64,000 nucleotides of DNA. Origin: Terriglobia bacterium. GTDB taxonomy: Bacteria; Acidobacteriota; UBA6911. The notes beneath the pieces are model-generated. The model had not been told where the DNA came from. It did not search any database and saw nothing but the letters and a program-made list of their open reading frames with translations. The stretch is from the NCBI GenBank assembly GCA_963824985.1, contig CAWGRQ010000024.1, positions 264,822 through 328,821 on the forward strand, in the 5' to 3' direction. Of this stretch, positions 23,879-62,529 are shown piece after piece (position 1 is the stretch's first letter; each line of letters opens with the position of its first letter). The translations under genes and the position numbers were made by a program.

Positions 23879-23890
23879 GGACCACGGATC

Positions 23891-25243: not shown

Positions 25244-25441
25244 CATCGGGGGGTGCGGCTTGTAGGCCGCGAAATTATTGACGTCTGGAACCTGTTGTGA
25301 CGAATCAGTTGACTGATCTGCCGGAGTTCCATGTGTCGGCCAGCGGGCTATCGCCGCTTCCCGGCCCGTGCGCCCCTCGCCGCAGGTCTGATTGGGTGTC
25401 ACAAAACTCTTCAGTCCCCTTCGGGGAAAAGGTATGAGGCC

Positions 25442-29200: not shown

Positions 29201-29873
29201 CTTCAACCCAAACGGGCAGGACCTGCCGCTTTCGATGCTGGCTCAATATCTCAAACCCGGGGATGGCAGCCTCTGGGCTTTCTATGAAGCCGAGCTGAAA
29301 ATGTTCCTGACCCCGTCGGAGAATCAGTGGGCCGCGTCAACATTGATCGGCGCCCAGGTCGATTTCGCGCCCGGATTTCTCGAGTTTCTGGGACGGGCCA
29401 ATGCCGTGCGTCAGGCCTTGTATGGATCGGGAGGAGCGGACCCGACCATAACCTTCGACCTCACTCCGGAACCGACTCCCGGAATGACGGAAAGCCTGCT
29501 CGATATCGACGGCCAGAAACTCCTGTATCGCAATGAGCGCGCGCTGCCGCAGCCCTTCACCTGGCCGGGTAAATCCGGGTCTCCCCAGGCGAAAATCTCG
29601 ATTTCCATCACCAGCTCGGGCGAGCGCCCCGGCATTCCCACCATCGATGGGGAGTGGGCCTTTTTCCGGCTGCTGGGCCGCGCCAGCGTCGCGCCGCAGT
29701 CGCAGACCGCCTATGGCGTGACGTGGTCGCTGCCAGGCGCCGATGGCCGGAAATTCGATGTCCGTTACCGGCTGCAGGCGAGAAATGTGCAGAATCCGTT
29801 CCTGCCCCAATTCTTCAGCCGGGTCCGGTGCCCGGAGAAGGTGACCCAGTTGCCGTCTTTGTCCCGCTATTAG
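26262..29873 (+). CDS. tssM: Type VI secretion system membrane subunit TssM (IcmF family)
   Basis: 1203 aa. Three N-terminal TM segments. Walker A LGPDESGKTS after LYTLPWILM. Long IcmF-related periplasmic region. Canonical size and position after tssL. Confidence 0.85.
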   Translation: MNPNPQQTPPLPPRPASVTKLFAIASICLAVATAGLWAVDNFLGRDTFKIVLMILLVFLGALIIFWLVLWLFRKLFSAAAASRERRLEEQAAARRQGASPEERAELDGLQEQLNVAVRVLRDSKLAKGKKGDEVLYTLPWILMLGPDESGKTSALRECGVDFPYTTAEGRKPTRGPAPGCDYWFSRGAVMLDLAGRIGAGEEGSETFQGFLDQLKRARKERPLNGVVVTISIADLLHQPADEVERLANRLRHRFDEMIKRLGIRFPIYVLFTKCDQVEGFREFFGNLRSRDRSQVWGATISHAQRKRLSAAQIFSQEYDRLVAELSTYRLPLLASEKNPQNQPLIYTFPTRMAALRERLTSFMSVLLQPTPYSERPMFRGFYMASAAGGPPAEAPVREVPQQWEPGRRFEAEADQPKTAARSYFLETLFPQIFFADRSLATASVDTRLRRRLWLDIAFIGTLALCLTLLVGMIFSFMENRALIEHVRLASLHLADAGWDGRRTTDLMAMEDLHQKVEELDRYQTEGPRWALGWGLYSGNAVNPAARRIYFRRLRDTFVAPTAEVLRRKLNGFASGADSAAAYDDFYTTLKAYLMMTEPQRAEESFLNNALGAPWKGIAARDAEEVALKQLRFYARQLPKNQPELQLTQDADLVARARRALSQFPALVRMYTRLKNEGNAKLPPYTLAIATGGKSLDYMNSSFDVPGVFTEAGWRTYFKNAVAQASQEVIKDDWVLGPTYAYAPSGGISDADYANKILDMYYAEYSDVWSRFLEGVSVRSLADLTEARGALDSFSQQDSALSRLLMNVGAQTMLRRNPEQGGSVTDMVSGALATLGLSTRVNREDLVTAIADQFAPLHDMITSPDGKSPALSAQYVEVIGRIHSKLEALFGAGTQWEQVKAYVGMIATNISGDEFHDGFRVTSRVTQMCRTRSTQPIGSLLEQPLRQSWAAILRDVGYRLDGLWKTRIAETYRRDVESRFPFNPNGQDLPLSMLAQYLKPGDGSLWAFYEAELKMFLTPSENQWAASTLIGAQVDFAPGFLEFLGRANAVRQALYGSGGADPTITFDLTPEPTPGMTESLLDIDGQKLLYRNERALPQPFTWPGKSGSPQAKISISITSSGERPGIPTIDGEWAFFRLLGRASVAPQSQTAYGVTWSLPGADGRKFDVRYRLQARNVQNPFLPQFFSRVRCPEKVTQLPSLSRY

Positions 29874-33400: not shown

Positions 33401-33539
33401 TAAAAATCCGGAGCCGGAAGACCAAGCCCAAACCCACCTCAGGGCGCGGCGGCGGCGGACGGTAAACGGTTTTGGGCGGATCCAACTTCCGATCCGCCGC
33501 CTCCTCATGGGCGGGATCTCCACGATCCCGCCCATTTAA
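30460..33539 (+). pseudogene. S9-family (prolyl oligopeptidase/DPP-type) serine peptidase with TolB-like beta-propeller, disrupted by at least 4 frameshifts
   Basis: Pieces lie in frames of ORFs 30391, 30653, 31140, 31405, 32242 and 32901. N-terminal signal peptide, WD-like propeller (RWTPDGTGVAYMS), catalytic GGHSYGAF (GxSxG), LLMYHGMHDQNVG. Paralog of the intact gene at 49914-52097 and shares its Gly/Arg-rich insert. One shift is a G-run deletion at about 32840. Confidence 0.6.
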
Positions 33540-37067: not shown

Positions 37068-40000
37068 CTAGAAGATGAAGCGGATACCCAGCTGGGCCTG
37101 GAATGGAGACGAGGATTCGGTACCGTAAGTCCCACTCGCCGGTCCCAGGGTGGACATGTACTGGGTCGAAAGGACGTTTCCTGAGAAGTTCCGCCCGAAG
37201 TTAGTCCGGTTTGTGATGTTGAACGTTTCGAAGTAGAACCCCAGGCTCATCCCCTCACGGACCTTCGCCAAGCTGATGAATTTTGTGACGCGCAGATCCA
37301 TCACGAAAAACCGGCCCGACTGCCAGTTGCCGTCGAGGTCGTACCCGCCGTGCTGCCCGTTCCTGGTCACACCCTGCGGGCACGTCCGGCCATTGGGAGC
37401 AGTTGCTCCGGGAATGCAGAGATCATTGTTAGTCCCATCCTTGTTGGCATCGGCGCCGGCCGTCAGCGTATACGGCCTGGATGAGGCCAACTGCAGAATC
37501 GGGGCAACCTGGAATCCGTAAGGAATGTCAAACACACCGGACCAGACGAAGCGATGCCGCTCGTCACGGACGGTGGCCACATAGTCGTCCGGGGTCGAGG
37601 TAGTTCGTCTGGTTGTACGGGCGGTGCCGCCGAATTCGCCGGAACCACCTGCCATACCCGCGCGCCCGCGAAAGCGTGTACGAACTCTGGAAGGTGAGGT
37701 GGTGCGACAGGCGCTTGCGGACGCCTATGTTGAGTCCGTCGTAGCTCGATCGGTTGACCGATGCCGCGTTGTTACGTCGGCGAACCGGTTCGATGGCATG
37801 CCGCTGCCGCGAGAGCACGCTCGACCGGATGCGCGGGTTCGATCCATCCGCCTTCACGATCCTGTAGTTGAGCGCGGATCGTGCGGTTTTCGTGGGTGTT
37901 GAGCGACATGGGTGTAATCCGCCTTCCAGCACGAAGTCCTTGGCGAACTCCTTCGTGAATCCGATGTTGAACTGCTGGGCAATGGGCTCACATAATCGGG
38001 ATCAATCAGGCGGCCGTTGAGCCGGCCGGGAAGCTTGGTTCAGCCGGTGTCGGGATGGAGCGGGAGAGGGGTGGGTTGACCAACCCGAAAGTAGGCATGT
38101 CGCCCTTCCCGATGCGGCTGTTAGCCAAAGTCACGACATTTCCAAAGATGGTCGGGAAGCTCTGCTGCATCGCAAACAGGTTGATGTTGTTGAACAACTG
38201 ATCGTAGTACATTCCGTAGCCACCGCGGATGACCGTCTTGCCCTCCCCCGTCGGATCGAAAGCAAAGCCGATCCGTGGAGAGAAGTTGTTCAAGTCGTCA
38301 GTCGGCAGCCTTCCCTTGAAGCCGTTGGTTAGCGGATGGTTGAGCTTCTGTGATGATCGGGTATGTGCGGCCGTTATTGCAGAATCTTCCGGCCCCGACC
38401 AGGCCGAGATCGACGTCGTAGCGCACTCCCATGTTGATCGTCAGCTTTCGGCTGACTCTCCAGTCATCCTGGAAATAGCCGGCTGACGAAGTTGATCCAG
38501 TTCGGATACGTGTACCGGGAGTCACAAGCGGATGGCTCTCCGTAATGCCCGACACAATGCCCGGGGTTGTGAAGCCCTGGGGATATTTTGTCTTGTCGTT
38601 CAGGATGATCGGACGGGCTGTCGAAGAAGGAGACCAGGGGAACCGGATTGTAACCGAAGAACCCGCCCAGCCACGGCTCAGCGACCCAATCGACTCCGAA
38701 TCTGAACCCATGGCTTCCCCGATTCCAGCTTGACGGAGTCCTTGATCTGCCACTTTCTTCTGGAACGTTTGCTGCGGTACGTTGCCCGTTTGTCCCGTAG
38801 CCCACTGAGGCGAACGCTCACCGTCACCGGCGAGTAATTATCGGTGTCGATCAGGTTATTCCAGTAGGAGGATCCCCACACGAACTGGTTGACGATTTTG
38901 GGGCCCAAAGTTGAACTCAGCACCGCCGACATCAGGTAATTTCGGTTTGTGTTGTAGTTGATGCTGGTCAGGTCCGTTGGCGCCTGGTCGTTTTCGTTGC
39001 GATCCGAACTGTTGTTCCAGGTCAAGTAGGCGTTGTTATTGGTGTTGATCATCCAATCTGCCGTGCCGTCCACATGGTGCGTTTGTAGGGCTGGGGCAGT
39101 TGCTCGGCCGGACTCGGCGTGGCGCCATAGATGCTGATCTTGGCGTCCGCGAGCAGCCTGCAGCTCGGCGACGGTGTTCGGAGGGAATGATGGTGAATGT
39201 GCTTTCCTGCATGCGCTCAATGATGAAGAAGAAGAAGGCTTTCTCCTTCTTGATCGGACCGCCAATGGAACCGCCATACTGCCAGCGCCGGAAGGGCGGG
39301 CTTATCCTTGCTGCTGCTTCTTGGACCAATAGTCGTTGGCATTGAAGATCTTGTCGCGGTTGAATGTGAACCAGCTACCATGGAAGTCGTTTGATCCGGA
39401 CTTGGTCACGATCGAAAGCAGGCCGCCCTGAGAGCGGCCGTCGGCGGCGGAGAACCGCTGGGTTTTCAGCGCGAATTCCTGCACTCCATCCAGCGAGACG
39501 TTCTGCACCCAGCCGCCGACTGAGTTGTCTTTGTTTTCGATGCCGTCCACGGTGGTTTCCATGTTGCGGCCACCGGCGCCGCCTACCGAAATCGCGCCAA
39601 TGCGGGTCTTGGTCGGGTCCCAGGAAGTCACCGGCCGCGCGCCCGGAAGCAACATTGCCAGAGCGGAAAAATTCCGGGAATTGAGCGGCAAATTGACGAC
39701 TTCGCGGCTTTCAATGACGCCGCCGACGTCTGTCTTAGTAGTCTCGACGAGCGGTGCGATTTCAGAGACGATCACGGTCGTCTGAGTCCCCGCCGGCTGG
39801 AGCACCACGTTGACATCGGTCGTCCGGCCCACGTTTACGATCACGCTCTTTACTTCATAGGCGCCAAAGCCGGCCAGCTCGGCTTTGAAGGAATAGGTCC
39901 CGGGTGTCAGGCCCGGAAAGCGGAATGACCCACTGCCTTCCGAAACCACGACCGACTCGAACCCTGTCGCTGTGTTCTTGATGGTTATGGTCACACCGGG

Positions 40001-40129
40001 AACAACCGCCGCCGATTTATCGGTAACCGTTCCCTGAATCTGCCCTTTTTCGCCGCCCTGACTGAACAGCATCGGGATCGCGATCAGAAAGGCGAGCAAA
40101 ACGAAAACTACAAAACGAGGATTGAACAT
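37068..40129 (-). pseudogene. TonB-dependent receptor with N-terminal carboxypeptidase-regulatory-like domain, shattered into at least 7 frame segments
   Basis: N-terminus (39302-40129): signal peptide, CarbopepD_reg-like GTVTDKSAAVVPGVTITIKNTATGFE, plug (NLPLNSRNFSALAMLLPG). C-terminus (37068-37655) ends QAQLGIRFIF (terminal aromatic beta-strand). Internal pieces lie in ORFs 37564, 38006, 38298, 38464, 38678 and 39036. Confidence 0.6.
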
Positions 40130-41091: not shown

Positions 41092-41490
41092 TTACCAGAG
41101 GGTTTGAACGTGGGAATAATTGCGGATGGCCTTATCCTTCGTTATCAGTAAGCCGCCATGATGCCGGACCGTGGCCACGATGATCTGGTCGGCAGGATCT
41201 CCGTGGAAGGGCCTGGGCAATTCGCAGCTTTCCAGCAAGATTTCATTGGTGATCTCGGCGATCAACAATCCTTCGACCTCCAAGGCCTGCCTCACCCATT
41301 GGCGCAACGGGCGATCAAACACCAACTGTCCCTTTTCCGCCTTTTTTGCCAGTTCCCAGATGGAAATGGCCGACAGCCAGACGGCATCTTGTTCCACGGC
41401 TTGTCGGATCGCGCTGAGGGCGCGAGACGACAGCCTGCGATCCCGTGTCACCCACCATATCCAGGCATGGGTATCAAGGAAGATCCGCAT
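41092..41490 (-). CDS. vapC: VapC-type PIN-domain toxin
   Basis: MRIFLDTHAWIWW...acidic PIN residues. 132 aa. Start overlaps the antitoxin stop by 17 nt. Confidence 0.8.
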   Translation of the reverse strand: MRIFLDTHAWIWWVTRDRRLSSRALSAIRQAVEQDAVWLSAISIWELAKKAEKGQLVFDRPLRQWVRQALEVEGLLIAEITNEILLESCELPRPFHGDPADQIIVATVRHHGGLLITKDKAIRNYSHVQTLW

Positions 41491-41793: not shown

Positions 41794-41848
41794 CACGCAT
41801 CGCTACTTCAAGGTCACGTTCAGATACACCGAATATCGCCCGTACGTT

Positions 41849-44800
41849 TCATAGAACGGCTTGAAGGCAACGTCCGCCGATTTTGAAACGAAGGGTGCCG
41901 GGATCGCCCGTGATGGATTTCCCGATGTCGCCGGCGTCGAGCGTCACGGGGCGCCAGTCGGTTCGGGGCGCGGACTCTTCGGCAGCCAACAAAACCGGAC
42001 CGTAGAATATGCTGGCGACATTGGGCTGATCCATGACCGGATCCAGATAAAAGTGGAACGGCATCCGGAGTTCGATCGTATCGTTGTCCCGCCAGGTTCT
42101 GCGGAGCGTCAGATAGGTGCCCGGCACGGCTTTGACCGATTGCTCCCGGCCGTTGATCTTGACGAAGAAGCCGCGGGTCGCCCAGCGCGGCACGCGGACC
42201 TTGATGTCGAACTGGCCGCTGCCCTTGAGGACGATCTGGGTCGTATCGGCGTACGGGAAATCGGTGCGCTGCTTCACGACCAGATTGCGCTCGGTCCAGT
42301 TCAGCGTGGATGGAACGAAGAGGTTGACGTAGAGCGTTTTGTCGTCGGCGCCCTTGAAGTAAATGGAATCCTGGAGCTTGGTGCTGCTTTCGAGCGCGGT
42401 GCCGTTGCAGCAGGTGAAACCGCTCATGTTGGCGTTGCCGAAATTGTTTCTGCGAGCCGGGATTGAGCGGGATATGGTAGGTGTTTCCCGCATTGTCCTC
42501 GGCGACGGAAGCGAGAATCTGGTTGTACAGCCCCTGCTCGTAGTGGTCCATGTATTTGGCGGTCTGATCGAACATGAAGAGCTGGCGGTCCAGCTTCAGG
42601 AGATTGTAGGTGCAACAGGTTTCGCACTGCCCGCCGCTGGCGAACCCGTTCTCGAAAAGCGTGTCGGGCTCGGCGGTGAAGCATTCGGCGTTGTTCGGAA
42701 CGCGGGCGCCGGCGACGCCGCCGATGCTGTACATGTAACTGTTGGTCACGATATTCCAGAAATTGTCGGCGATCCGGTAGTAGGGGAATTCTCGCGTGTC
42801 GCGGAAGGTTTCCAGCGCTCCCGTGATCTGCGGGATGTGCATGTTGGCGTGCTTGCCGCGAATCGTATCGACATTCTTGGCCAGGCCGTGATCGTGCTCG
42901 GCGTTGCCGTAGAAGAAATTGATGTTGTCGAACAGCTTGGCGCATTCGAGGAACTGCTGATCTTTGGTGAGCCGGGAGAGGCGCGCCAGGACTTCGTTCA
43001 TGCCGCCGTACTCGCCGGCGATATAACGGTTCCACATGCTGATGCGCGTTTCCGCCGGAAGCGCCTTGAGCCGGGCATAGGCCCAGGATCCCATGTTCCT
43101 GGCGATCTCCAGGGCCTTCTGGTTGCCGCCGACCTCGTAGCAATCGAGCAGGCCGGCGAGGATCTTGTGCAGGGTGTAGTAAGGGGCCCAGATCTGGCGT
43201 GTTCTGGGCGCCGTACGTGGCGCCCTGCTCGAGCATGATGAACTGGTCGGGAGGGTAGGCGCTGATGAATCCCCTGCCCCAGTTCCAGTAATCGGTCCGG
43301 ATGGCATCGGCCCGGAGATTGGAATCGTAGCCGGTACGGCCGGGGCCGGGCGGGACGGCGGTCGGATCGGCATTGAACTCGCCGCCCTCCTTCGCGGGCC
43401 TGCCGGATTTCTGGGAGAGATCGTAAAGGGTATCGATGAGGTAGTTCATCTTCTGGAGGAAATTCGCCCGCAACGTTTCATCGTAGGTCGTGCCGGCGTA
43501 GGCCTGGGCGATGGCGGACAGATAGTGACCGGTGGCGTGGCCGCGCAAGGCGGGTCGTCTGGTTGTCCCATCCACCCAGCGGCTTGACGCCTTCGGGCTG
43601 CTTCTGGCCGAACGCGTCCCTGAAATTGTACAGGAAGTTGTCGGGATTGGTTGTCGCCAGGGTGCGGATGAACTTATCGCGGTTCTTGATGAATTGCGTG
43701 TCGCGCCGCTTGGTGTCCTGCTCCAAAACGACCTGGCCGAGCGGGAACGACTCGACCAGGCGCTCGGGAACGGGCGCGGCTTTCGCGGCCGCTTTCACGG
43801 TCACCGTGGCTTTGGGTTGGAATGGAGTGCCGGGCACCTTGCCGGTCACGGTGTAAATGCCCGGCTTCAGGACCTCGCTATTGTCTTTGGGCGACGGCCA
43901 GACCACGCGGACATCCGGGCCCTTGGCTTTGTTGCGGTACACGGCGGGGATGTTATACGGCAGCCGGGGGAGCTGGCCAATGATCGTCTCGGCCTTGACA
44001 TCGGGTACTGATTCCAATGGGATCGCGGTGGGCAGCACGATTATCCTTCGGGGCCGCAATAACCGGGGGGGCTGGTCTGTTTCCACGGCCCTGACCGCCA
44101 CCGGCACCGGCGGCCTGAGGGCCCGATAAGGCGTTGTTGCGAATCGTGGCCACCTGCTGGTCGCTCAGCGCGATGCGGTAGATGCGGACATCGCGCACTC
44201 TGGCATTGAGGGTGGCATCGGCGTCATTCTGCGAGCGGCCGATGTAGAGGCGGTTCGCATCCGTGGAGGTCTGGTTGAATACATGCGCCGCGTTCACGGT
44301 GACGTTCGTAGCCTGGCCGACCCTGGCGCCGTTGAGATAGCTGGTCAGGGTGCGATTGGGCGGATCCAGCACGACGGCGACGTGGACCCACTGATTCTGC
44401 GGGAATCGTCGCGCCCGTTTGTTCCAACACGCGCTGCAGCGCCGGAGCCGATATAAGCGCGGAAGCCCGCGTCGGGACCGGATTCAGTCAGGACGGCAGA
44501 GAGACTGTTGGAGGCGTTCTGACCGAAATCGAAGAACCGCTGTCCGGTCACATCGGAATTAAGTAAAATCCAGCCCGTGACGCTGATCGTGTCTTCGCCA
44601 GTCAGGGCCTTGCCTGGGAGTTGGACATGGCTGCCATCGCCCGGCAGGTTCAGGACGTTACCGAACCGGCTGTCCTGGACAAAAGCCGCCCCAGACCCAC
44701 GCAGCGTCGCATGCAAGGTGTTCCTCGACCTGTCCTCCGCGTTGCCGTTAAATATATAACGGGCTATGAGGGCGGTTTCGCCGATCCCATCAAGAAACTG

Positions 44801-44901
44801 GTCGCCTCCTCCGACGTTTTGAGCCATCTCTCGCTCCGTAAACGCCGGCGAAACAGTGACTATCGTCAAGACTAAAATAAGGAAGATCCGCATTTTTGTC
44901 A
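41849..44901 (-). pseudogene. Secreted LamG(concanavalin-like)-GH127 (DUF1680, beta-L-arabinofuranosidase-like) glycoside hydrolase, at least 4 frameshifts
   Basis: Signal peptide MTKMRIFLILVLTIV. LamG segment (VRDVRIYRIALSDQQV). GH127 blocks RGHATGHYLSA, HANMHIP, Cys-rich GQCETCCTYNLLKL. Pieces lie in ORFs 44345, 43953, 43478, 42424, 41820 and 41849. Confidence 0.55.
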
Positions 44902-45106
44902 TTATGATTGACCCCGTGATGCATGAAATCGTGAAACACTGAATTTCCGTTCCCAACGGTGCGGGCGGGATCGGGTTTGGAGGGCTCCGCGACGCATCGT
45001 CAGCCAAACTTCGTAACACATAGAGAAAGTAAAAACCAGTCTAAATGGAGGAGTGCGGCCTTTTCTCCATGAATAATCCAGGATCCCGGTGCCGCGCGCC
45101 GGCCAT

Positions 45107-47266
45107 TCAGCGTGATCTGGCAAGTGCATCGGCGATCTTTATCACCGGGGCGGGGTTCGGCACCACATAAGTGTACTTTTTCCCTGAAGTCAGAATGACG
45201 TCGAGGCGGTCTTTCCTGATCGTGAAGGTCCGCACCGTTTCCAGGCCGGCCCGCAGGGCATGATCCTGCTGCCTGGCGGGAGAAAAGCTGATTTCCGTAT
45301 CGGTAATGGTCAACGTGCCCTCACAGCCCGAGCCGATAAAATGATCGTGCCTGACGGGCGCGCTGTAGGGCGTGATTCCGGCCAGGCTCAAGCGTAGCTT
45401 CATTCCGGCGGCGAGAGATTTCAACGCGTCGGCACCGAATTCGCTGTTCCCGCCAAGCTCTATGGCCCTTTCCATCGACTTCATGGCTGCGGCCAGGTTG
45501 CGGCGTTTCTGCTGGGCAAATCCCAGCTGAATAAAATAGGTCGGATTTTTGGGCGCCAGTTCGCAGGCCCTGGAGAGGTTCTCTATGGCCTTGTCGAGGT
45601 TCTGCTGAGCATCATAGGAACGTCCCAGGTGGTAGAAGGCGCCGGCATTCTGTGGGTCCAGCTGCACGACCCGGCCATACTGCCGGATCGCTTCGCGGGA
45701 ATCGCCCGTTTGAAATGCTTTTTCTCCCGCCTTTTGAGCATTTACCAATTCGGCAGCCATCCTGCCTTTCGCCAACCGGGACTGCGCGGCATCCCTCCTG
45801 GCCTGAATTTCAGGGTCGCCCGGGAAATACTCCAGCAGCGTATCATAAGCATTGATAGATTCCTCGGGCCGCCCCTTTTGTGCGCTGTCATCCGCCCGCA
45901 GCATAAGCGCGGCGCGGATATCAGCCTTCAGATTGCCGGCCTCTGCGTTTGCGGGATTTTCCGCCAAAGCGGCATTTGCGAAGTGCAGGGCATCCTTCCC
46001 CTCAGCACCCACAAGCGATCCCCGGCTCATGGCTGCGCGGGCGAGGGCGAGCAGGTCAGGCCTCTGGGCAGGAGAGGGAGGCAAAGTGAGGGGCACGGCG
46101 GCCGGAGCAGCAGGTGCCTGGGATCCGCTCCGCAGCCAGTAAACTATCGCCAGCCCAAGCACGACAATGGCCCCCGCACCGATGATCCAAAGAGCTTTGC
46201 CGCGCCCGCCTGCCGCAGGCTGTCGATTGGCCGATGCCGAATGTGTTTGAATCTCGGCCTCTTCAGAGGGGGGAGCCGCAGCCGCAGGGATAATTGTCCC
46301 ATTGGCCGCGGGAGTCATCGCTGGCACACGAACAGGAGCACTGGTCGGCCACGAAGCGGCGACACCTCCGGTATTAAACAGCGTCGCGGTATCCGTCGCT
46401 GAGGAGCTCCCCTCCCCTGCCGCGCCCGCTTCACGGCCACGCAGCAGACTCTCCAAATCGCGCCCCAGTTCGGCACAGTTCTGATACCGGAGTTCCGGAT
46501 CCTTGGCCAGAGCTTTGTCCAGAACAGCGTCAAAATCGGGGAGCAGGCCGGGCTTCCGGACCAGAACGGATGCATGCCGGTCCTGGACGATCTTGAAAAT
46601 GATGGTAGTCGGATTTTCTCCGGTAAAGGGTCGTTCGCCCGTCAGGGATTCATAAAGAACCACGCCCAGCGAGAAAATGTCCGAGCGGTGATCGACGGAC
46701 TTGCCCATGATCTGTTCAGGTGACATGTAACTCGGCGTACCCAGGATCATGCCCGTCTGAGTGAGATTCGAGGCGGTCAGTTTGGCGATGCCAAAGTCCA
46801 CGACCTTGACCCGGTCGTCCCGGGTGATCATGATGTTGCCTGGTTTGATATCGCGATGCACGATGCCGCACTGGTGCGCATAGTGCAACGCGCCGCACAG
46901 CTGAATGAAGATCTTCAGAACCTGATCCTGAGGAAGAGCGGGAGGCTTCGCAATGATGCTTTCAAGATTGATCCCATCGACAAATTCCATGGCGATATAA
47001 GGATCACCCTCTTCGTCGCCTCCCACGTCGTAGATCACAGCAATGTTGGGATGCGACAGGCGCCCGGCCGCCTGAGCCTCGCGCATGAATCGGGCGAAAA
47101 ACTCTGCCCGCACCTTCTCGGGGATGTCCGGAATCGAACGGATCTTCTTGATGGCTACGATGCGATCGATCTTGGGATCGCGCGCCCTATAGGCAACACT
47201 CTGCCCACCCTGCCCGATCACTTCGAGAATCTCGTAACGACCAACCTTTTCGTCTGGCATCGGCAT
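45107..47266 (-). CDS. Ser/Thr protein kinase with TM helix and C-terminal TPR repeats
   Basis: GQGGQSVAYRA, VAIK, HRDIKPGNIMI, DFGIAK, GTPSYMSPEQ. TM ALWIIGAGAIVVLGLAIVYWL. TPR region (AYDTLLEYFPGDPEIQ...). Confidence 0.8.
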   Translation of the reverse strand: MPMPDEKVGRYEILEVIGQGGQSVAYRARDPKIDRIVAIKKIRSIPDIPEKVRAEFFARFMREAQAAGRLSHPNIAVIYDVGGDEEGDPYIAMEFVDGINLESIIAKPPALPQDQVLKIFIQLCGALHYAHQCGIVHRDIKPGNIMITRDDRVKVVDFGIAKLTASNLTQTGMILGTPSYMSPEQIMGKSVDHRSDIFSLGVVLYESLTGERPFTGENPTTIIFKIVQDRHASVLVRKPGLLPDFDAVLDKALAKDPELRYQNCAELGRDLESLLRGREAGAAGEGSSSATDTATLFNTGGVAASWPTSAPVRVPAMTPAANGTIIPAAAAPPSEEAEIQTHSASANRQPAAGGRGKALWIIGAGAIVVLGLAIVYWLRSGSQAPAAPAAVPLTLPPSPAQRPDLLALARAAMSRGSLVGAEGKDALHFANAALAENPANAEAGNLKADIRAALMLRADDSAQKGRPEESINAYDTLLEYFPGDPEIQARRDAAQSRLAKGRMAAELVNAQKAGEKAFQTGDSREAIRQYGRVVQLDPQNAGAFYHLGRSYDAQQNLDKAIENLSRACELAPKNPTYFIQLGFAQQKRRNLAAAMKSMERAIELGGNSEFGADALKSLAAGMKLRLSLAGITPYSAPVRHDHFIGSGCEGTLTITDTEISFSPARQQDHALRAGLETVRTFTIRKDRLDVILTSGKKYTYVVPNPAPVIKIADALARSR

Positions 47267-47314
47267 TCATTTTTGCACGGATTTCGCGGATGTTCATCAA
47301 CAAAGGACAGGCTC

Positions 47315-48058
47315 CTAAGTCTGATTCTTGCAGTCCAGATGTTGCTGCAGGTTTCGAAGACGCAGGCTGGTATCAGCCAGGGCCCGTTCAAGTTGCGCGA
47401 CGAGGCCGCGCAGGCGCGCGATCTCCTTTTGGTCGGGATTCTCCGCGATCTCGGCCGACGTTCCGGTAGCCGTGGCGGATCGATGCTGCTGGATTTCATG
47501 GCGCAGATGTTGATTCTCAGCCTTCAGCTGTTCGATTTTCTGGGTCAGAGCCTGAATTGCGACGCCCCCGGCCAGGGTAGCCGGTTCAACATGGCTTGCG
47601 GTCTGCTTCCCGGGCAGCCCGCCCGGCGCCGGGAAGGCTCCGTCCAATCCCCCGGTTGGCGTGCCATCCGGAACCCGCAAATCCGATCCTGCCAGGGGAT
47701 CCCGGGCCAGCCGCGCAGGTCCGGAGCTTGAGGCCTGGCTGCGGAATACCGCGGCGGCATCACCGAAGCGGATCGAGTCCTGGTTGGCCAGCATTTGCAG
47801 CGTGACCTTCTTCCCATTCACACTCGTCCCGTTGGCGCTCCCCAGATCCTTGATCCAGTAATGACCACCTTCAAAGAAGATGCGCGCGTGATGGCGGGAG
47901 ACCGACCTCAGGTTCAGGACAACGTGGCTTTCGGCCGAACGCCCGATCGTGGCCACCTGGCCGAGGACAAATTTACCCATGCCCTCAACTTCCAGTTCGG
48001 CGGAAGCCGAGAAGGCAACCCTTTTGCCCTGTCCCGGGTCGGGAAATTGAGGAACCAT
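47315..48058 (-). CDS. FHA-domain protein with C-terminal coiled coil
   Basis: FHA core GRSAESHVVLNLRSVSRHHARIFFEGGHYWIKDLGSANGTSVNGKKV. Heptad-like C-terminus (IEQLKAENQHLRHEIQQ). Immediately upstream of the kinase, same strand. Confidence 0.7.
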   Translation of the reverse strand: MVPQFPDPGQGKRVAFSASAELEVEGMGKFVLGQVATIGRSAESHVVLNLRSVSRHHARIFFEGGHYWIKDLGSANGTSVNGKKVTLQMLANQDSIRFGDAAAVFRSQASSSGPARLARDPLAGSDLRVPDGTPTGGLDGAFPAPGGLPGKQTASHVEPATLAGGVAIQALTQKIEQLKAENQHLRHEIQQHRSATATGTSAEIAENPDQKEIARLRGLVAQLERALADTSLRLRNLQQHLDCKNQT

Positions 48059-48163
48059 ATTGCTCTATTATAGCATAAAAAAGGGGTTTTGCGTCCCCAT
48101 GAGCCTGCCCCCAGATCCAAAATTGGTTTTCTTTGATCGCCGCATTCGCTATCATTCAGGCCA

Positions 48164-49879
48164 ATGTCGATTATCCTGGTGCATATTCACGGCTCCCAGA
48201 AGGGCCGCAAAGACAGATTGGGCAACGATATCATCCGGCTGGGCAGAAAAGCCGACAACCAGCTGGTCTTCACCGACAACGTCGTCTCGAGCTATCACGC
48301 GGAAATGCGCGCCGGCAGTGATGGGTATGTATTGGCCGACCTGGACAGCACCAACGGCACGTTTCTGAATGGGCGGCGGATTGAAAAGGAGACTCTGAAG
48401 GAGGGGGACCGGGTCGAACTGGGGAAAAACGGTCCGGTATTCGAAGTCCACATCGAATCAGCCGGGGCCGCCAGCGCTCCCCGGATCGTTCCGCTGTCCG
48501 GTTCCTGGGAGCAGGGTGATACCGCACTGGAACTGCGCGAGGCCAGAATCTCCATCGGCCGAGGGTCCAAAAACGACATCATCGTCGGAAGAGATCATGG
48601 ATCGCCGGTTTCCGGAAATCATGCCGAGATTCGCATTCACTCCGACCGGTGCGAATTGGAGGATCTGGGAAGCACCAACGGCACCTATGTAAACGGCCAG
48701 AAGGTTAGGGCCGTGCAGCTCCAGGACGGGGACCGTATCGAATTCGGGAAGAACGGCCCGGCATGCGAATTTCGCTGGAAGAGCGGCTCACCCTCGGCCC
48801 GGCGTGGAAGCGCCCGCGAGAGCGAGCGCCTCTTCCGCAAACTCGAACATGCGGCAAAGGGGGGGCCGGCCGGAGATCGCACAATGTTGCTGTTGCAGGC
48901 CGCCAACAAGTACTATAAGCGGCGGCGCTGGCCTATCCTTGTCCTGGCGGGCGTAGTCATCCTGGCCGCGATCGGGATTGGCATCGAGTTGTACCGGAAA
49001 AACCTCCAGCTGAAGGAACAGGGGCGACTCGCGGAGGCGGTCTTCTACCAGATGCGCTCGGTCGAGGCTCAAATCGTGCAGCAGCGCGAGTCGATGACAC
49101 AGGAGGAATTCCAGAGCCTTCGAGACAAGAGGATGCGCCTGGAGCAGGATTACGACCGCTACCTTGAAAGCTTAGGCCTTTATACCGGCAGGAGCCCGGT
49201 CGAGCAGGCCATTATGCGGCTGGCGCGCCGCCTGGGGGAGACCGACCTCGAACTGCCCCCCGATTTTCAGAAAACCGTCCTCGAGTATGTCGAGCGCTGG
49301 CGCAGCACCCCACGGCTGCGCGCCGCGCTTGACCGCGCCCGGCCGCGGAGCCTCCCGCGCAGAATCCGGCTCGCTCTCGACCAGTATGGTCTGCCGCGGG
49401 AGTTCATGTTTCTCGCCCTTCAGGAGAGCGACTTCGATACCACCCGGGTCGGCCCGCAAACCCGCTTCGGCATAGCCAAGGGAATGTGGCAGTTTATCCC
49501 CAAAACAGCCCAGGAATACGGACTGGCCCTCGGCCCGCTGAAGGATGTCGCCCAATATGACCCCTCCGATCAGCGCCAGGATGAAAATCGCGCCACGGCA
49601 GCGGCCGCCCGCTATCTCGCCTATCTCTATTCCACCAAGGCGGCAGCCTCGGGTCTGCTTGTGATCGCCTCATACAACTATGGCCAGACCCGGATCATCG
49701 AAAGACTGGATCAGCTCCCCAATGACCCGCGCCAACGCAGTTTCTGGTACTTCTATCGCAACGGCTGGATTCCGCCGGAAACGCGCGACTACGTGATGTA
49801 TATCTTCTCGGCAGCCCTGATCTGCGAAAAACCCGACCTCTTCAACATCTCCATGGCCCCCATCGACACGCAGTGGTAA
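48164..49879 (+). CDS. Tandem-FHA / TM / lytic transglycosylase (SLT-domain) fusion protein
   Basis: FHA1 LGRKADNQLVFTDNVVSSYHAEM...LDSTNGTFLNGRRI. FHA2 IGRGSKNDIIVGRDHGSPVSGNHAEI...LGSTNGTYVNGQKV. TM WPILVLAGVVILAAIGIGI. SLT-like EFMFLALQESDFD...GIAKGMWQFIP...IASYNYG. Confidence 0.7.
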   Translation: MSIILVHIHGSQKGRKDRLGNDIIRLGRKADNQLVFTDNVVSSYHAEMRAGSDGYVLADLDSTNGTFLNGRRIEKETLKEGDRVELGKNGPVFEVHIESAGAASAPRIVPLSGSWEQGDTALELREARISIGRGSKNDIIVGRDHGSPVSGNHAEIRIHSDRCELEDLGSTNGTYVNGQKVRAVQLQDGDRIEFGKNGPACEFRWKSGSPSARRGSARESERLFRKLEHAAKGGPAGDRTMLLLQAANKYYKRRRWPILVLAGVVILAAIGIGIELYRKNLQLKEQGRLAEAVFYQMRSVEAQIVQQRESMTQEEFQSLRDKRMRLEQDYDRYLESLGLYTGRSPVEQAIMRLARRLGETDLELPPDFQKTVLEYVERWRSTPRLRAALDRARPRSLPRRIRLALDQYGLPREFMFLALQESDFDTTRVGPQTRFGIAKGMWQFIPKTAQEYGLALGPLKDVAQYDPSDQRQDENRATAAAARYLAYLYSTKAAASGLLVIASYNYGQTRIIERLDQLPNDPRQRSFWYFYRNGWIPPETRDYVMYIFSAALICEKPDLFNISMAPIDTQW

Positions 49880-49913
49880 GGATTCCAAGGACAGTTCCAT
49901 CCCCCTAAAGATC

Positions 49914-52097
49914 TTACTTTGCCTTGCTCCCCTTCAGATACTCATCCAGCCACGCCCTCTCGTTCAGCATCCGGTGAATCTGGTTCCAATGTCCCGCGAT
50001 TCCGTGCGGCTGTCCCGCGTACTGGATGATCTTCGCCGGAACGCCGTTCTTTTTGAGCGCGAAGTACATCTGCTCCCCCTCCTCGAACGGCACGCGGTGA
50101 TCCACCTCGCCATGGATGAAGAGGGTTGCAGCCTTCACCCGGTCGGCATACGTGAGGGGGGATTGGCGGATCATAATTTCTCTCGCCTTCGGGTCCCAGG
50201 GCGTGCCATAGAACTCCGTTTCCTTGGTGCGGGCGATGTCGGCGAGGCCGTAGTCGCTGATCCAGTTGGAAATCCCGGCGCCCGGGCAGGCCGCCGCAAA
50301 CCGGTCGGGGTATTGCGTGATCAGCCAGTTGCTCATGAACCCCCCGTAGGAGTGCCCGATCGTTGCCACCCGGCCGGCGTTAACCGGGAAGTTCTTGATG
50401 ACATAATCCACCCCCGCCATCACGTCCTGCCCATCCTTCGTACCCCAGGCGCCCCACGTAGCCCAGAGGAACTTCTCGCCGTAGCCCGTGGAACTCCGGA
50501 AATTCACCTGGAGAACGAAGTATCCGTTGGCGGCAAAATACTGACCCTTGAAATCGAAGCCGTACCCCACCGCGCTGTGCGGTCCGCCGTGATTGCTGAC
50601 GATTAGCGGAAACGGCCCACCGCCGGGGCGATAGCCATACGGATAGAGAAGCCACCCTTCGACCGGAGTACCGTCGGCGCTCTTGAAGTTCAACCGCTCG
50701 GCGGTGCTGAGTGCAACCTCGGAACGGAAGGCATCGTAAATGTGCGTGAGTTGCCGTTCCCCGGAACCATCGATGTTGGCGAAGGAAATCTCCGAAGGCG
50801 CCTCGAAGCGACCGACGGTGAATGCCATTTTTGTCATCGCGCGATTAAAGGAAAGCCCGCCGATGCGCCGCTCCCCCCTGGTGATCTGTTCAACGGCTCC
50901 GCCCGTCGGCAAAATCCGGAAGAGATGCGTGGTGCCGCCGATGCCCCCGGTAAAATAAACATACTTGCTGTCGGGACTCCATTGGGCGCCTGCGGGCAGA
51001 TAGTCCCAGTCTGCAGTCAGATTCTTTCCCTCGCCGCCGCCCGCCGGCATCAGGATGAGATCCACCGGCCCGCCGTGATTCAGCTTTTTTGCAATGACCA
51101 TGTCGAGCGCAAAGCCGCGCGTGGCCAGAATATACCGGCCGTCGGGCGAATAGCGCGCGTTGGAATAGCTGTAATCGGGATTCGAGGTCAGGCGCCGGGC
51201 CGCGCCGTCGAGGGATACGGTCCAGATGTCGTTGCGGCCGTAAGAACGTTCCTGGCGATACGCGGAGTCGGCGGTAAACAGGATCGCCGTGCCATCATGG
51301 TTCCATTGCACGCCGCCCGGCCGAAATCCCAGCCGGGTGAGCTGCCGTTCCGCGCTGCCGTCCGCCGCGGCGATGAAAATCTCCTGCGGAGGCGTCAGCT
51401 GGGGATCCACGGGGTTGGGCACCGGCCAGGCCGCGCCATCGCGCTTGTATTCGAGCCAGTCGATCACAGATCCCTTGAATCGTTCCTCGTGGCGTTTTGC
51501 GAATTCGGATTCATAGACCCGCTCAGTCTTTGGAGGCGGCGTGTTCCGTACGGTCGCGATCCACTTGCCGTCGGGACTGGGCAGCGGCGCACCCCCCCCT
51601 CTCCCCCCCGCCCCTCTCCCCCCGCTTCTGCCTCCACCCGCGGGAGCGGCAGTGGCTTCAGGGGCCTTCCCCGGCATCCCCGGATCGTAGAGATACGTGC
51701 GATTGCCGGCGCTGAAACGGAGGAGGCCTTCGCCGGTCCATTGAGGAGCGCTCGCATCCACCCCCTCGGCACTCACGCGTCGCTCGGGCGACGAGGCATC
51801 GGCACCGACGAGCCAGACTTCACTCTGGTTCCCGTTCGTTTCCTCCACCCGTGTGCCGACCGTAAACGCGACCCAACGGCCGTCGGGGGAAAGCTCGGGA
51901 GACCCAACCGTTTTGATACGGTAATAGTCCTCGATTGAGAGCGGGCGCCCGCCCGCCCGCGCCGCCGCGGATGCCTGCCCGCGCTCCACAGGCAGGGTGG
52001 AAGAGAGCGCCAGCACAGCGCCGATCGCAGCCGGCAACAGAGCGACAAGGGTAAAATGCGTGCGCGGGACTCGAAATCTGCGGTTGATATCAGACAT
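49914..52097 (-). CDS. S9-family serine peptidase with TolB-like propeller (intact paralog)
   Basis: Start MSDINRRF with AGGAAT SD. Propeller SPDGRWVAFTV. Catalytic GHSYGGFMSNW. IHGEVDHRVP. Gly/Arg-rich insert. 727 aa. Confidence 0.75.
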   Translation of the reverse strand: MSDINRRFRVPRTHFTLVALLPAAIGAVLALSSTLPVERGQASAAARAGGRPLSIEDYYRIKTVGSPELSPDGRWVAFTVGTRVEETNGNQSEVWLVGADASSPERRVSAEGVDASAPQWTGEGLLRFSAGNRTYLYDPGMPGKAPEATAAPAGGGRSGGRGAGGRGGGAPLPSPDGKWIATVRNTPPPKTERVYESEFAKRHEERFKGSVIDWLEYKRDGAAWPVPNPVDPQLTPPQEIFIAAADGSAERQLTRLGFRPGGVQWNHDGTAILFTADSAYRQERSYGRNDIWTVSLDGAARRLTSNPDYSYSNARYSPDGRYILATRGFALDMVIAKKLNHGGPVDLILMPAGGGEGKNLTADWDYLPAGAQWSPDSKYVYFTGGIGGTTHLFRILPTGGAVEQITRGERRIGGLSFNRAMTKMAFTVGRFEAPSEISFANIDGSGERQLTHIYDAFRSEVALSTAERLNFKSADGTPVEGWLLYPYGYRPGGGPFPLIVSNHGGPHSAVGYGFDFKGQYFAANGYFVLQVNFRSSTGYGEKFLWATWGAWGTKDGQDVMAGVDYVIKNFPVNAGRVATIGHSYGGFMSNWLITQYPDRFAAACPGAGISNWISDYGLADIARTKETEFYGTPWDPKAREIMIRQSPLTYADRVKAATLFIHGEVDHRVPFEEGEQMYFALKKNGVPAKIIQYAGQPHGIAGHWNQIHRMLNERAWLDEYLKGSKAK

Positions 52098-60059: not shown

Positions 60060-62529
60060 ATGTTAAATCCCCAAGATATGTTGAGCAATATCTGGAATGA
60101 CCTGCTTCATGCCGCGCGCTCCCTGGCAAAAGCCCGAGCTTTTACATTTGTGTGCGTGGTGTCGTTGGGAATCGGCATGGCGCCCGTCATCGCGATTCCG
60201 TATGTCGCGCGAGCACTCACAATACAGCCGCCCGGCGTGAAAACCGAGGGACTGGTCGAAATCGACACGACGCGAGTGGGCCCGCGCGCGGCGACCGACA
60301 TTTGGTCTTATCCGGACTACGTCGATCTGCGCGACGCCAATACCGGAACCACGCTTGTGGGCTGGACGTACGGGCAAAGCGAAGTACAAAAAGACTCCGC
60401 GCGGGCAATGTTTGTCTCCACGAACTATTTCCAGACGATCGGCGTGACGCTGTTTCGCGGACCGGGCTTCAGCGCGACTGCCGAGCCTGCCGTGATTCTG
60501 GGATACCGGTACTGGCAGAACCATTTCGCCTCCGATCCGGACATCATCGGCAAGACGCTCACTCTGGACGACGTTCCGCATGTCGTGGCCGGCATCGCTC
60601 CGGAAGGATTTGATGGCCACGTCACTGGGAACGGAGAAGTAGCTGTCTTTCTTCCGCTCGAACGTAATCCGCGTTTTCGTACCGCCGGTGCCGACCGAAG
60701 CAAAGAGTGGGTGCTTATCCACGGACGCCTGATGCCCGGAGTCAGCGTGGCGCAGGCGAGCGCGGCCGTTTCCGCGGTCACATCGTCGTTGGCCAAACAG
60801 TATCCGTCGACGAACGAGAACAGGTCCGGCATCGCCGCCCCGTATGACGCATACGGCAATCTCGTGAAGTCGCGGCTTGCCGTCATTCAAGCGCTCGGGC
60901 TGACGCTGACCGGAATGATATTGCTGGTTGTGTGCCTGAATATCTCCGGCATGGTGCAGGTTCGCAGCGCGATGCGCGAGCGGGAACTGTCCATCCGCCA
61001 GGCGATCGGCGCCACGCGCCGGCAGCTGATCCAATATCTGTTGAGCGAAGCGATCATCATGGCCGGTCTTGGAGCGATCCTCGCGTCGCTCGTTTTGTTC
61101 AACCTTCCGTCGCTACGGTCACTGTTAACCGACGACCCGCTTCCGCCACAGGTGCAAGAGGTACTGAAAGTGAATCTGCCGACGGTCGGGTTCGCTGTGG
61201 GACTCTGCCTCCTGACCAGCCTCGTGTTCGGATTGCTGCCGGCCGTTCGCTTCAGTCGCCCGGTGATCCTCTCTGCCTTGAAAGACGATGTGGGCGTCGG
61301 GGGGCGGCGCGTAGGTCGAGTTCAGCGCGTGGCCGCGGCGTTGCAGGTTGCGATCGCGGTTCCGTTGATCGTGATGAGCGGCATCTCGCTCGATCGCGTC
61401 CGCGCCACCGCAACCGCCGACCTCGGATTCGCAGCGGACCTCTTGTACGCCGTGCCGTTGAAGGTCGACGACGCCAAGATCGCGAACGCGGATTCCCGAA
61501 TCCGCAGCGTCCGAGACGATCTCGCCAAGGCAGACGGTGTTGCCGCCGCAACTCTCGCGGACGGCCTGCCGCTGGATAACCGCGGTCACGGCGCGCGTAC
61601 CGCGCTGCAGCCGGAAGCGAACGAGGCGCCGAAGTTCGTTCATAGTTCACGTCACGCGCGTGGACAACGACTATCTGAACACGATGGGCATCCCGCTTTT
61701 GCGTGGCCGCGGTTTCGCGGCAGACGATCGAGCGGGCACGGAACTCGTCACCATCATTTCGAAGACGCTCGCCGAGAAACTCTTTCCGAATGCTGAAGCC
61801 GGCCAGGCGATCGGCAAGCGATTGATCTTCGGCAACGATGAAAAGACGACGCAGACGCTCACGGTTGTAGGTGTCAGCGGCGATTTCCCGACCGCGCAAA
61901 TGAGCTCGCCGCGAGAGCAGTTGCTGTTGCCGCTCGCGCAGCAACCGTCTCAGGAGCTGTTCCTGATTGCGCGCAGCAGGCCTGGCGAACCGCCACAGAA
62001 AATGACCGCGACGCTTGAAAAGGCGGAACGCGATTTCAATCCGGAGAACCGCGGCTTCGGATACGGCGACGACGGGGCGACTTACCCCACTGTGGTCACG
62101 GGAGTGTGGCTGCGGAAGAACAGCATGGACGACTTCCTGAGGGAGTCGGCCGTCGCGGCTGTCGCAGGCAGCGTCATCCTGACGCTGTCGGCGCTTGGAA
62201 TCTACGGCGTCGTCGGGTTGATGGTCGCGACACGTACGCGCGAGCTTGCGGTGCGCAGCGCGCTGGGCGCCTCGCGACGCCGCGTGCTTGGCATGGTCTT
62301 GTTCGACGTGGTGAAACTCGTGCTGCCCGGCGTGGTCGTCGGACTCATTCTCACGGCCGCGTTCATCCGCCTCAACGGCGAAAACATGGGCATCCCGCTC
62401 AGCAACGTGGAGTACCTGTCGTACGTCGTGGGCGCTGCGGTTGCCGTGCTCGTCGCGGTCGTCGCGAGCCTCGCTCCGGCCCGCCGCGCCGCCTCAGTCC
62501 AACCCATGGTCGCCATGCGCTCGGAATAA
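60060..62529 (+). CDS. MacB-like ABC transporter permease (two FtsX domains), one frameshift near 61644
   Basis: N-terminus MLNPQDMLSNIWNDLLHAARSLAKARAFTFVCVVSLGIGMAPVIA is typical of Acidobacterial MacB-like permeases. MacB periplasmic domain, then FtsX TM bundles. The frame switches between ORFs 60060 and 61537 at gttcatagttcac. Roughly 823 aa total. Confidence 0.65.

Follow-up and report, generated by a model that had tools for sequence, protein, structure and literature searches.

A predicted membrane-anchored lytic transglycosylase with phosphothreonine-reading FHA domains, probably linked to type VI secretion in Acidobacteriota and other phyla

Introduction

A stretch of 64,000 nucleotides from a Terriglobia bacterium of the Acidobacteriota (contig CAWGRQ010000024.1, positions 264,822 to 328,821; this whole stretch is hereafter called the window) encodes a protein of 571 residues in which two FHA domains, readers of phosphothreonine (pThr), are joined through a transmembrane (TM) helix to a transglycosylase domain of the SLT type. 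The residues and the structure models of this fusion indicate that it is very probably a membrane-anchored, catalytically competent lytic transglycosylase with pThr readers in the cytoplasm. Its functional tie to a type VI secretion system (T6SS) appears likely from the gene neighbourhoods, and it seems to us reasonably probable that the fusion assists the T6SS as an accessory transglycosylase whose recruitment or switching depends on Ser/Thr phosphorylation, although our confidence is lower for any particular phospho-target. Both the parts and the concepts are known, namely the specialised transglycosylases of envelope machines and the threonine phosphorylation of the T6SS; what is new is their combination, a phospho-reader fused to a wall-cutter.

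The gene stands with two others, a Ser/Thr kinase (STK) and a protein with one FHA domain and a coiled coil (FHA-CC), all three identified as open reading frames (ORFs) with Pfam matches:

45107-47266, minus strand: Hanks Ser/Thr kinase with a TM helix and TPR repeats, 719 residues
47315-48058, minus strand: FHA-CC, 247 residues
48164-49879, plus strand: FHA-FHA-TM-SLT fusion, 571 residues

The limits of the three ORFs are exactly those of an earlier note on this DNA, whose description of a kinase-FHA pair divergent from the fusion is borne out by three intact reading frames with the domains claimed. The FHA-CC gene lies 48 nt upstream of the kinase gene on the same strand, and a spacer of 105 bp divides it from the divergent fusion gene.

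Architecture, topology and fold of the fusion protein

The elements of the fusion, all on the plus strand, are the following:

48164-48457: FHA domain 1, residues 1-98 (AlphaFold2 (AF2) beta-sandwich, residues 2-98)
48482-48775: FHA domain 2, residues 107-204, family-wide (alignment, Foldseek)
48869-48892: motif A-G-[ED]-x-T240-M-x-hydrophobic, residues 236-243, predicted cytoplasmic (alignment)
48929-48997: single TM helix, residues 256-278, predicted N-in/C-out (hydropathy maximum 2.68)
48998-49372: predicted periplasmic helical stalk and bundle, residues 279-403 (conservation, AF2)
49373-49876: SLT/GH23 catalytic domain, residues 404-571 (Pfam SLT)
49424-49426: codon of the catalytic Glu421 (hidden Markov model (HMM) alignment to MltD 8rhe)

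Pfam profiles recognise the FHA domain twice (3e-40, 136.9 bits) and the SLT domain (PF01464) at residues 410-516 (7.5e-14, 51.7 bits against a cut-off of 21.3), and the protein has one hydrophobic helix only. Four of the 15 residues ahead of this helix are Lys or Arg, and these positive charges on its N-terminal side predict that the FHA domains are cytoplasmic and the SLT domain periplasmic, in agreement with the two N-terminal FHA domains, TM helix and periplasmic transglycosylase of the earlier note.

The catalytic domain contains the motifs Q420-E421-S422, G440-M-W-Q443 and S503-Y-N-Y-G507, and alignments of 15 and of 78 homologues show little or no variation in Q-E421-S, G440-x-W-Q and Y504-N-x-G507. 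Glu421 falls on the I-E-S motif of Pseudomonas aeruginosa MltD (8rhe) in the HMM alignment (profile match, E 7e-18) and is found in 77 of the 78 homologues, the remaining one having Asp; the absence of a catalytic Glu, which the earlier note had named as a reason to abandon the idea, is therefore not what the alignment shows.

All three FHA domains encoded at the locus have the pThr-contact residues (Arg of G-R, Ser and His of S-x-x-H, Asn of N-G). In FHA domain 1, which occurs only in an Acidobacteriota subgroup of proteins of about 570 residues and is missing from the homologues of about 480 residues of other phyla, they form part of G27-R28, S42-x-x-H45 and S62-T-N-G-T. In FHA domain 2, G132, S170 and G173 are invariant and R133, S150, H153 and N172 are kept in at least 90% of the 78 sequences, and the corresponding residues of FHA-CC are G39-R, S54-x-x-H57 and S74-A-N-G-T. 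The two domains of the fusion are thus FHA domains (PF00498) by profile, by pThr-binding residues and by their eleven-stranded beta-sandwich fold.

The full-length AF2 model (mean predicted local distance difference test score (pLDDT) 88.3) consists of the two FHA beta-sandwiches, a continuous helix of residues 237-306 that comprises the TM segment and the stalk, and a helical domain. The FHA parts match those of GarA, OdhI and FhaA in Foldseek, with a TM-score to the target of 0.85-0.95 and a root-mean-square deviation of 1.2-1.9 Å. Because FHA matches dominated the search with the full-length model, the periplasmic part was modelled and searched alone (pLDDT 92.9, predicted TM-score 0.90); its best match was MltD (8rhe_B; E 1.6e-4, 225 columns), followed by Escherichia coli MltE, Campylobacter Cj0843 Slt and MltC, and model and search together assign the SLT domain to the goose-lysozyme-like alpha-helical fold. 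The region between the membrane and the catalytic domain (residues 279-403) is modelled with a pLDDT above 90 and holds F294, Y330, G358, P365 and F368, invariant in the 78 sequences. A profile search found no relative of it by sequence in the Protein Data Bank (PDB), and such conservation without a relative of known structure suggests that it is a family-specific addition.

A family connected to Ser/Thr phosphorylation

The fusion has 1615 database relatives at E < 1e-10, annotated publicly only as "FHA domain-containing protein" or "MltD". The full FHA-FHA-TM-SLT architecture of about 570 residues is found in dozens of them, in Acidobacteriota, and many others are of about 480 residues with one FHA domain. 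A profile of the periplasmic module retrieved 402 clusters at 50% identity (E <= 1e-30), and among the 84 full-length representatives scanned all have the SLT domain, 74 an FHA domain and three a protein kinase in the place of FHA, which indicates that the periplasmic module is almost always wired to the cytoplasmic machinery of Ser/Thr phosphorylation. Two of these variants, cited like the other loci and proteins of our survey by L and P numbers, are:

L001, 10001-11923: P0068, kinase-TM-SLT, a Hanks kinase instead of the FHA pair
L085, 10001-11986: P0079, kinase-TM-SLT, a Hanks kinase instead of the FHA pair

From the juxtamembrane region to the C-terminus (residues 235-571 of the fusion) P0068 is 82% identical to the fusion, closer than any full-length orthologue, and its gene is just downstream of an rve-type transposase gene, suggesting a recent swap of modules. 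In rare cases a kinase domain stands where FHA would be, and this speaks for an enzyme that works physically close to the kinase. Two other candidates were set aside: P0076, whose gene call appears truncated or chimeric and which was left out of account, and the 640-residue kinase encoded in the window at 15560-17482, which has no similarity to P0068 and was ruled out as a kinase-SLT paralogue of it.

Genomic context across phyla

One genome per GTDB species was scanned, which gave 501 loci encoding relatives; the best 80 were analysed, and 39 of these are fully flanked (8 kb or more to each side). Neighbouring ORFs were clustered in an unbiased way and recurrent clusters were annotated with Pfam and NCBIfam. 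Represented among the 80 loci are Acidobacteriota, Desulfobacterota, Nitrospirota, Ignavibacteriota, Gammaproteobacteria (including the cultured Thiocapsa roseopersicina DSM 217, L071), Bacteroidota, Calditrichota and Bdellovibrionota.

Within 10 kb of the gene, T6SS core or VgrG-module genes are present at 21 of the 39 fully flanked loci, or 22 if L006 is counted, where tblastn detects tssJKLM, and at 32 of the 80 loci overall. For a random gene at most 1-2% would be expected, an estimate of ours based on the usual sizes of clusters and genomes. The T6SS-linked loci belong to Acidobacteriota, Desulfobacterota, Nitrospirota, Ignavibacteriota and Gammaproteobacteria. Genes for STK, PP2C or CsgG-like proteins are found within the same distance at 27 of the 39, and genes of either the T6SS or the kinase type at 29. 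The recurrent neighbours, in which families without a name carry u numbers, are distributed as follows:

PP2C phosphatase: 20 of 80 loci
STK-PEGA kinase: 19 of 80
VgrG: 15 of 80
u255 (cytoplasmic, no family match): 13 of 80
u264 (cytoplasmic, no family match): 10 of 80
TssC: 9 of 80
two-FHA protein: 9 of 80
ClpV: 8 of 80
TPR and CsgG-like lipoproteins: 7 + 7 of 80
pentapeptide, DUF3540, PAAR-like and sigma-54 activator proteins: 6 of 80 each
DUF2169: 5 of 80

In Desulfobacterota, Ignavibacteriota and Chromatiales the order ClpV-VgrG-DUF2169-pentapeptide-DUF3540-PAAR-[FHA-TM-SLT]-PP2C-(trypsin-like)-STK-PEGA-CsgG-like recurs, and the PP2C gene follows the SLT gene on its 3' side at -4 to +41 nt in nine of ten cases, an operon-like spacing. 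In gammaproteobacterial metagenome-assembled genomes (MAGs) the order is u255-SLT-x-TagH-tssJKLM, and at L032 a genuine TagH (339 bits) adjoins the SLT homologue.

By its recurrence at T6SS loci of several taxa, the FHA-TM-SLT gene is a candidate T6SS-associated gene (TAG) as PMC13584744 uses the term, a gene of this kind being one that also influences T6SS assembly or activity. The earlier note had called the T6SS proximity suggestive but unproven; it is now strongly supported by the 21-22 loci, by the several phyla and by genes abutting tssM or tssA in close relatives, and a consistent association with unrelated loci, which would have spoken against the idea, is not seen. The association is widespread but not exclusive, as Bacteroidota-type loci hold housekeeping cell-wall genes. 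The co-occurrence with STK loci that the note had proposed to look for is found as well, in the kinase-type neighbours, the adjoining PP2C gene and the kinase-for-FHA swaps. The family overall is, as far as gene content and neighbourhood indicate, a phospho-signal-linked transglycosylase, of which a large part, the clade of the window included, is embedded in T6SS loci.

The u255 and u264 genes are mostly side by side and adjoin the FHA-TM-SLT gene (examples of their coordinates are L005 16042-16872, L008 8942-9727, L010 5548-6312 and L030 9110-9898), and u370, which has a signal peptide, comes after CsgG-like genes at eight loci. Neither these three families nor u301 have a Pfam or NCBIfam match. 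A search of the 64-kb window for u255, u264, u370 and the PEGA kinases found none of them, returning only generic kinase-domain matches and a CsgG-like gene.

The Acidobacteriota loci and the distance to tssJKLM

The T6SS genes of the window, all on the plus strand, encode the membrane complex TssJLM and the baseplate protein TssK:

23375-23878: tssJ (Pfam T6SS-SciN)
23891-25243: tssK, baseplate (Pfam T6SS_VasE)
25331-26158: tssL (Pfam DotU)
26262-29873: tssM (Pfam IcmF)

Between the end of tssM and the fusion gene downstream there are 18.3 kb, in agreement with the 18 kb of the earlier note. From position 29873 the interval consists of 15.2 kb of unrelated, partly frameshifted genes and of the 719-residue kinase gene, after which comes the FHA-CC/fusion pair. 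Related loci show shorter distances. At L006, whose protein is 64% identical, tssJ-K-L-M is followed after 113 bp by FHA-CC on the minus strand and the fusion on the plus strand, and at L005 and L002 (75% identical) the tssM/FHA-CC junction is split by an insert of four metabolic genes (5.3 kb). The most fitting reading of these layouts is that the ancestral cluster ran tssJKLM-FHA-CC-fusion and that the 18-kb gap interrupted it secondarily. At L003/L008 and L010 (56-57% identical) the order is tssG-F-E-C-B-A, u255, FHA-CC (in L010), SLT and STK-PEGA, followed by hcp in L003/L008. Orthologues of FHA-CC with 44-62% identity occur in the T6SS loci L005, L006, L008 and L010, and also in L086.

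The adjacent kinase, FHA-CC and the signalling block upstream of tssJ

The 719-residue kinase matches Pkinase (2e-50, 172 bits) and TPR repeats in Pfam, retains the motifs GxGxxG, VAIK, HRDIKPGN, DFG and SPE, and has a single TM helix (residues 358-378) with the TPR side predicted to be periplasmic. It is hence, like kinases of the PpkA/TagE type, a Hanks kinase with a TM helix and a periplasmic domain, its ectodomain being of TPR repeats. The STK neighbour reported in the earlier note is therefore present with intact motifs; as a partner, it is kept only in the nearest relative, STK-PEGA taking this place elsewhere. One orthologue, 69% identical, keeps the SLT/FHA-CC/STK triad (L086), and another, 55% identical, is beside riboflavin genes. 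After the TPR repeats, residues 620-719 (45110-45409) have no Pfam match and are retained in the 69% orthologue (P0122); this predicted periplasmic C-terminus of roughly 100 residues is possibly a small sensor domain.

FHA-CC, on the minus strand, consists of two parts:

47762-47950: FHA domain (Pfam FHA, 8e-20, 71.5 bits)
about 47324-47566: coiled-coil-like tail, after the FHA domain

A second group of signalling genes, assigned by Pfam, is found directly upstream of tssJ, at 12655-23313, with three Hanks kinases, a PP2C phosphatase and a CsgG-like lipoprotein:

12655-14400, minus strand: STK
14547-15524, plus strand: CsgG-like lipoprotein with FlgT-like C-terminus
15560-17482, plus strand: STK, 640 residues
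17983-18801, minus strand: PP2C
19039-23313, plus strand: STK-TPR, 1424 residues, many TPR repeats

The same trio of STK, PP2C and CsgG-like genes, the last often TPR-fused, stands beside FHA-TM-SLT genes in Desulfobacterota, Ignavibacteriota and others. By analogy with TagQRST-PpkA-PppA, this block may be an uncharacterised sensing module of the T6SS.

A proposed phosphorylation-dependent opening of the wall

On the favoured account, T6SS-associated Hanks kinases, opposed by PP2C, would create pThr sites, candidates being the kinase itself, a T6SS membrane or baseplate protein (for example TssL), FHA-CC and Thr240 of the fusion. The FHA domains of the fusion would bind these sites, and this binding would recruit or activate the enzyme at the place and time at which the TssJLM complex is built, where it would cut glycan strands locally and so open the peptidoglycan for TssJLM. 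A single polypeptide would in this way unite the role of TagH/Fha1, a phospho-dependent cue for assembly, with that of MltE and TagX, the opening of the wall. The phosphorylation-gated remodelling of peptidoglycan suggested in the earlier note is thus supported by the conserved SLT and FHA residues and by the STK/PP2C synteny, from which we infer the function.

The motif around Thr240 deserves attention for this reason. Gly237 and Thr240 are present in 78 of 78 sequences, and only I, V, L, M, F or Y stands at position +3 from the Thr; of the kinase fusions, P0079 retains the Thr and in P0068 it is shifted by two residues. Many FHA domains prefer pT-x-x-(I/L/V), a preference that T240-x-x-hydrophobic fits, so that Thr240 is a possible phospho-acceptor or FHA ligand.

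A bolder and rather doubtful version of this account, offered tentatively, is that FHA-TM-SLT is the locus-encoded peptidoglycan gate of the T6SS in many non-model phyla and a direct output of its Thr-phosphorylation pathway. The kinase signal, taken up for instance at Thr240 or by FHA domains docked to the phosphorylated kinase, would pass along the continuous TM-stalk helix and switch on glycan cleavage exactly at the site where the membrane complex is inserted. If this were true, the family would include the first transmembrane, phosphorylation-switched lytic transglycosylase and would account, in mechanistic terms, for the spatial and temporal licensing of T6SS assembly by the kinase pathway.

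Alternative explanations

Several observations weigh against a role devoted to the T6SS, and some of them suit a general, kinase-regulated wall enzyme of growth, division or recycling, whose proximity to the T6SS would reflect shared kinase regulation; StkP-MltG of pneumococci and the PknB-FhaA circuit of mycobacteria are analogues of such an enzyme. At ten of the 39 fully flanked loci there are neither T6SS nor kinase genes within 10 kb. Four loci of Chitinophagales/Ignavibacteriales (L015, L016, L046 and L052) hold NamZ, AMIN-Amidase_3 (AmiC-type) and SpoIID with no T6SS or kinase gene nearby, and at a KSB1 locus, likewise without T6SS, the neighbours are SPOR-domain proteins, a Cache-SpoIIE phosphatase and a sigma-54 activator; from these contexts the ancestral role of the family may be general remodelling of the cell wall. 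In the window, the fusion gene is 18 kb from tssM, with 15 kb of unrelated genes between it and the T6SS block, and the rest of the system's genes are not found in the window. The adjacent 719-residue kinase is lineage-specific, with few full-length orthologues, and is not a conserved partner. No T6SS genes stand beside the two kinase-SLT fusions (L001 and L085), both on short contigs and near their ends, which makes these loci uninformative. Thr240, finally, begins a predicted helix, for which it could equally serve as an N-cap, with a purely structural role. However, in several phyla the gene is embedded among core T6SS genes, its rate of T6SS proximity (54-56%) is far above the chance estimate, and its operon-like link is with the PP2C/STK-PEGA/CsgG-like module, a companion of VgrG and ClpV in its own right, so that a general wall enzyme appears unlikely. 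The block at L015, L016, L046 and L052 also holds a major facilitator superfamily (MFS) transporter and a GT2 protein, and with NamZ, an exo-muramidase, it has the appearance of a peptidoglycan turnover context.

A tie to the T6SS could also take other forms than that of a phosphorylation-controlled enzyme. The protein might be a peptidoglycan anchor or scaffold of the membrane complex, like TagL or an "evolved" TssL, in which the SLT domain would hold on to glycan strands and catalysis would be secondary or absent: the TssL of the window (275 residues, DotU domain only) has no peptidoglycan-binding extension, no TagL-like gene was seen, and the long helix of residues 237-306, rigid in the model, would suit a strut. 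We consider this quite improbable, given that the catalytic Glu and all the family-1 transglycosylase motifs are almost perfectly conserved, which argues for catalysis, and that gammaproteobacterial loci with the gene have a TssL of 453 residues, long enough, judged by its length, for a C-terminal extension. A tracking of the gene with short TssL was ruled out by the same comparison (246-275 residues in Acidobacteriota-type loci vs 453). The SLT homologue directly follows PAAR-like genes in L019, L020, L027, L037, L042 and L071, downstream of VgrG-DUF2169-PAAR cargo modules, a position to be expected of an antibacterial muramidase delivered by the T6SS, and effectors of the transglycosylase type exist according to the T6SS literature. 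Cytoplasmic FHA domains and an N-in TM anchor fit instead a resident membrane protein; conservation from phylum to phylum (in the periplasmic part the columns average 56% identity) sets the sequence apart from fast-evolving effectors; a PP2C gene rather than a conserved small immunity gene is downstream; and the neighbours in Acidobacteriota are tssM or tssA, not VgrG. With its topology, its conservation and no immunity gene, the effector role is hardly credible and was rejected, and an accessory transglycosylase under phosphorylation control is the explanation that we retain.

Comparison with known systems

The passage of TssJLM through the peptidoglycan is known from only two model systems, MltE in enteroaggregative E. 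coli and TagX in Acinetobacter. MltE is a housekeeping lytic transglycosylase recruited by TssM for the insertion of the membrane complex (Santin and Cascales, 2017, as reported in PMC13584744 and PMC10433429). It shares with the fusion the GH23/SLT family-1 fold, being the second-best structural match, and the proposed job of opening the peptidoglycan locally for TssJLM. MltE is a lipoprotein of the outer membrane with no cytoplasmic part, and its gene lies apart from the T6SS locus, whereas the fusion is encoded in or next to T6SS loci and has a predicted inner-membrane anchor and cytoplasmic FHA domains. TagX, in Acinetobacter, Burkholderia and others, is described in the T6SS reviews as the product of a T6SS accessory gene and, like the fusion, as a membrane-anchored periplasmic peptidoglycan hydrolase for crossing the wall, but it differs in fold and chemistry, being a VanY/M15-type L,D-endopeptidase that cuts peptide cross-links instead of glycan strands, and has neither FHA domains nor a known link to phosphorylation. 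The Pfam scan gave no peptidase match in the fusion, SLT being its sole enzymatic domain, and the relation with TagX is thus of functional analogy only.

On the signalling side, the closest comparison is TagH/Fha1 with the kinase PpkA (TagE) and the phosphatase PppA (TagG), an FHA protein beside a Hanks kinase and a PP2C, in which phospho-dependent docking is thought to trigger assembly. TagH is soluble and without an enzymatic domain, unlike the fusion. Against the TagH model (TIGR03354, cut-off 120.25 bits) the fusion scores 71 bits and FHA-CC 40.8 bits, with the FHA part alone aligned; a score below the cut-off and the co-occurrence of true TagH in gammaproteobacterial loci make the fusion an additional component rather than an orthologue of TagH. 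The partner kinases found here have PEGA or TPR ectodomains, in contrast to PpkA, which carries a vWA domain.

By sequence and by fold, the closest catalytic domain is that of MltD (P. aeruginosa 8rhe; E. coli PRK10783), with E-S, G-x-x-Q and Y-N-x-G in common. MltD is a lipoprotein with C-terminal LysM repeats, whereas the fusion has no LysM and no lipobox and has instead the N-terminal FHA-TM module and the family-specific helical stalk; with 45 bits against the 508-bit cut-off of the MltD equivalog (NF008050), it is not an MltD by that measure. VirB1, EtgA, IpgF and the FlgJ type are specialised transglycosylases of other envelope machines and resemble the fusion in concept, as dedicated enzymes encoded with a trans-envelope machine, and so does the StkP-MltG pair, in which a membrane-bound cutter of glycan strands has a cytoplasmic part under the control of a Ser/Thr kinase. 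To our knowledge, in none of these are FHA domains fused to the enzyme, and none belongs to a T6SS.

A review of T6SS accessory genes of August 2026 includes TagX (endopeptidase), TagL/N/P/W (peptidoglycan binders), TagH, TagE and others, with MltE outside T6SS loci, and T6SS reviews state that peptidoglycan-cleaving enzymes are rarely encoded in T6SS loci, the only ones named there being TagX and MltE. A full-text literature search found no FHA-transglycosylase fusion and no T6SS-accessory transglycosylase; as it covered subscription journals thinly, an earlier mention is possible. The FHA-TM-SLT family, with about 400 clusters at 50% identity in at least six phyla, would be a third solution to the crossing of the wall by TssJLM, and the physical fusion of the enzyme to pThr readers provides a concrete, testable link between the kinase/phosphatase switch of the T6SS and the opening of the wall. 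The gene is also a marker for a little-studied conserved accessory module of the T6SS, consisting of PP2C, STK-PEGA, the CsgG-like lipoprotein, u255 and u264 and found in environmental lineages (Acidobacteriota, Desulfobacterota, Nitrospirota and Ignavibacteriota).

Other features of the window

A scan for promoters and terminators at 44900-50100 gave no signal exceeding the shuffled expectation. The kinase, FHA-CC and fusion genes are unbroken, and four neighbouring genes are split over two to four frames:

32242-33539, plus strand: S9 peptidase
37068-40129, minus strand: CarboxypepD_reg/OMP beta-barrel receptor
41820-45019, minus strand: LamG-Big_4-GH127 arabinofuranosidase
60060-62529, plus strand: MacB/FtsX-type permease

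Similar splitting is seen in related long-read MAG contigs, for example in tssC of L003, and these cases are more likely assembly indel errors than true pseudogenes. The stretch of 15 kb between tssM and the three genes also contains a PIN-domain (VapC-like) toxin gene (41092-41490, minus strand). The AT skew is strongly positive (0.16-0.22) at 20001-24000, unlike in the remaining window, and this segment corresponds to the 3' two-thirds of the 1424-residue STK-TPR gene and to tssJ.

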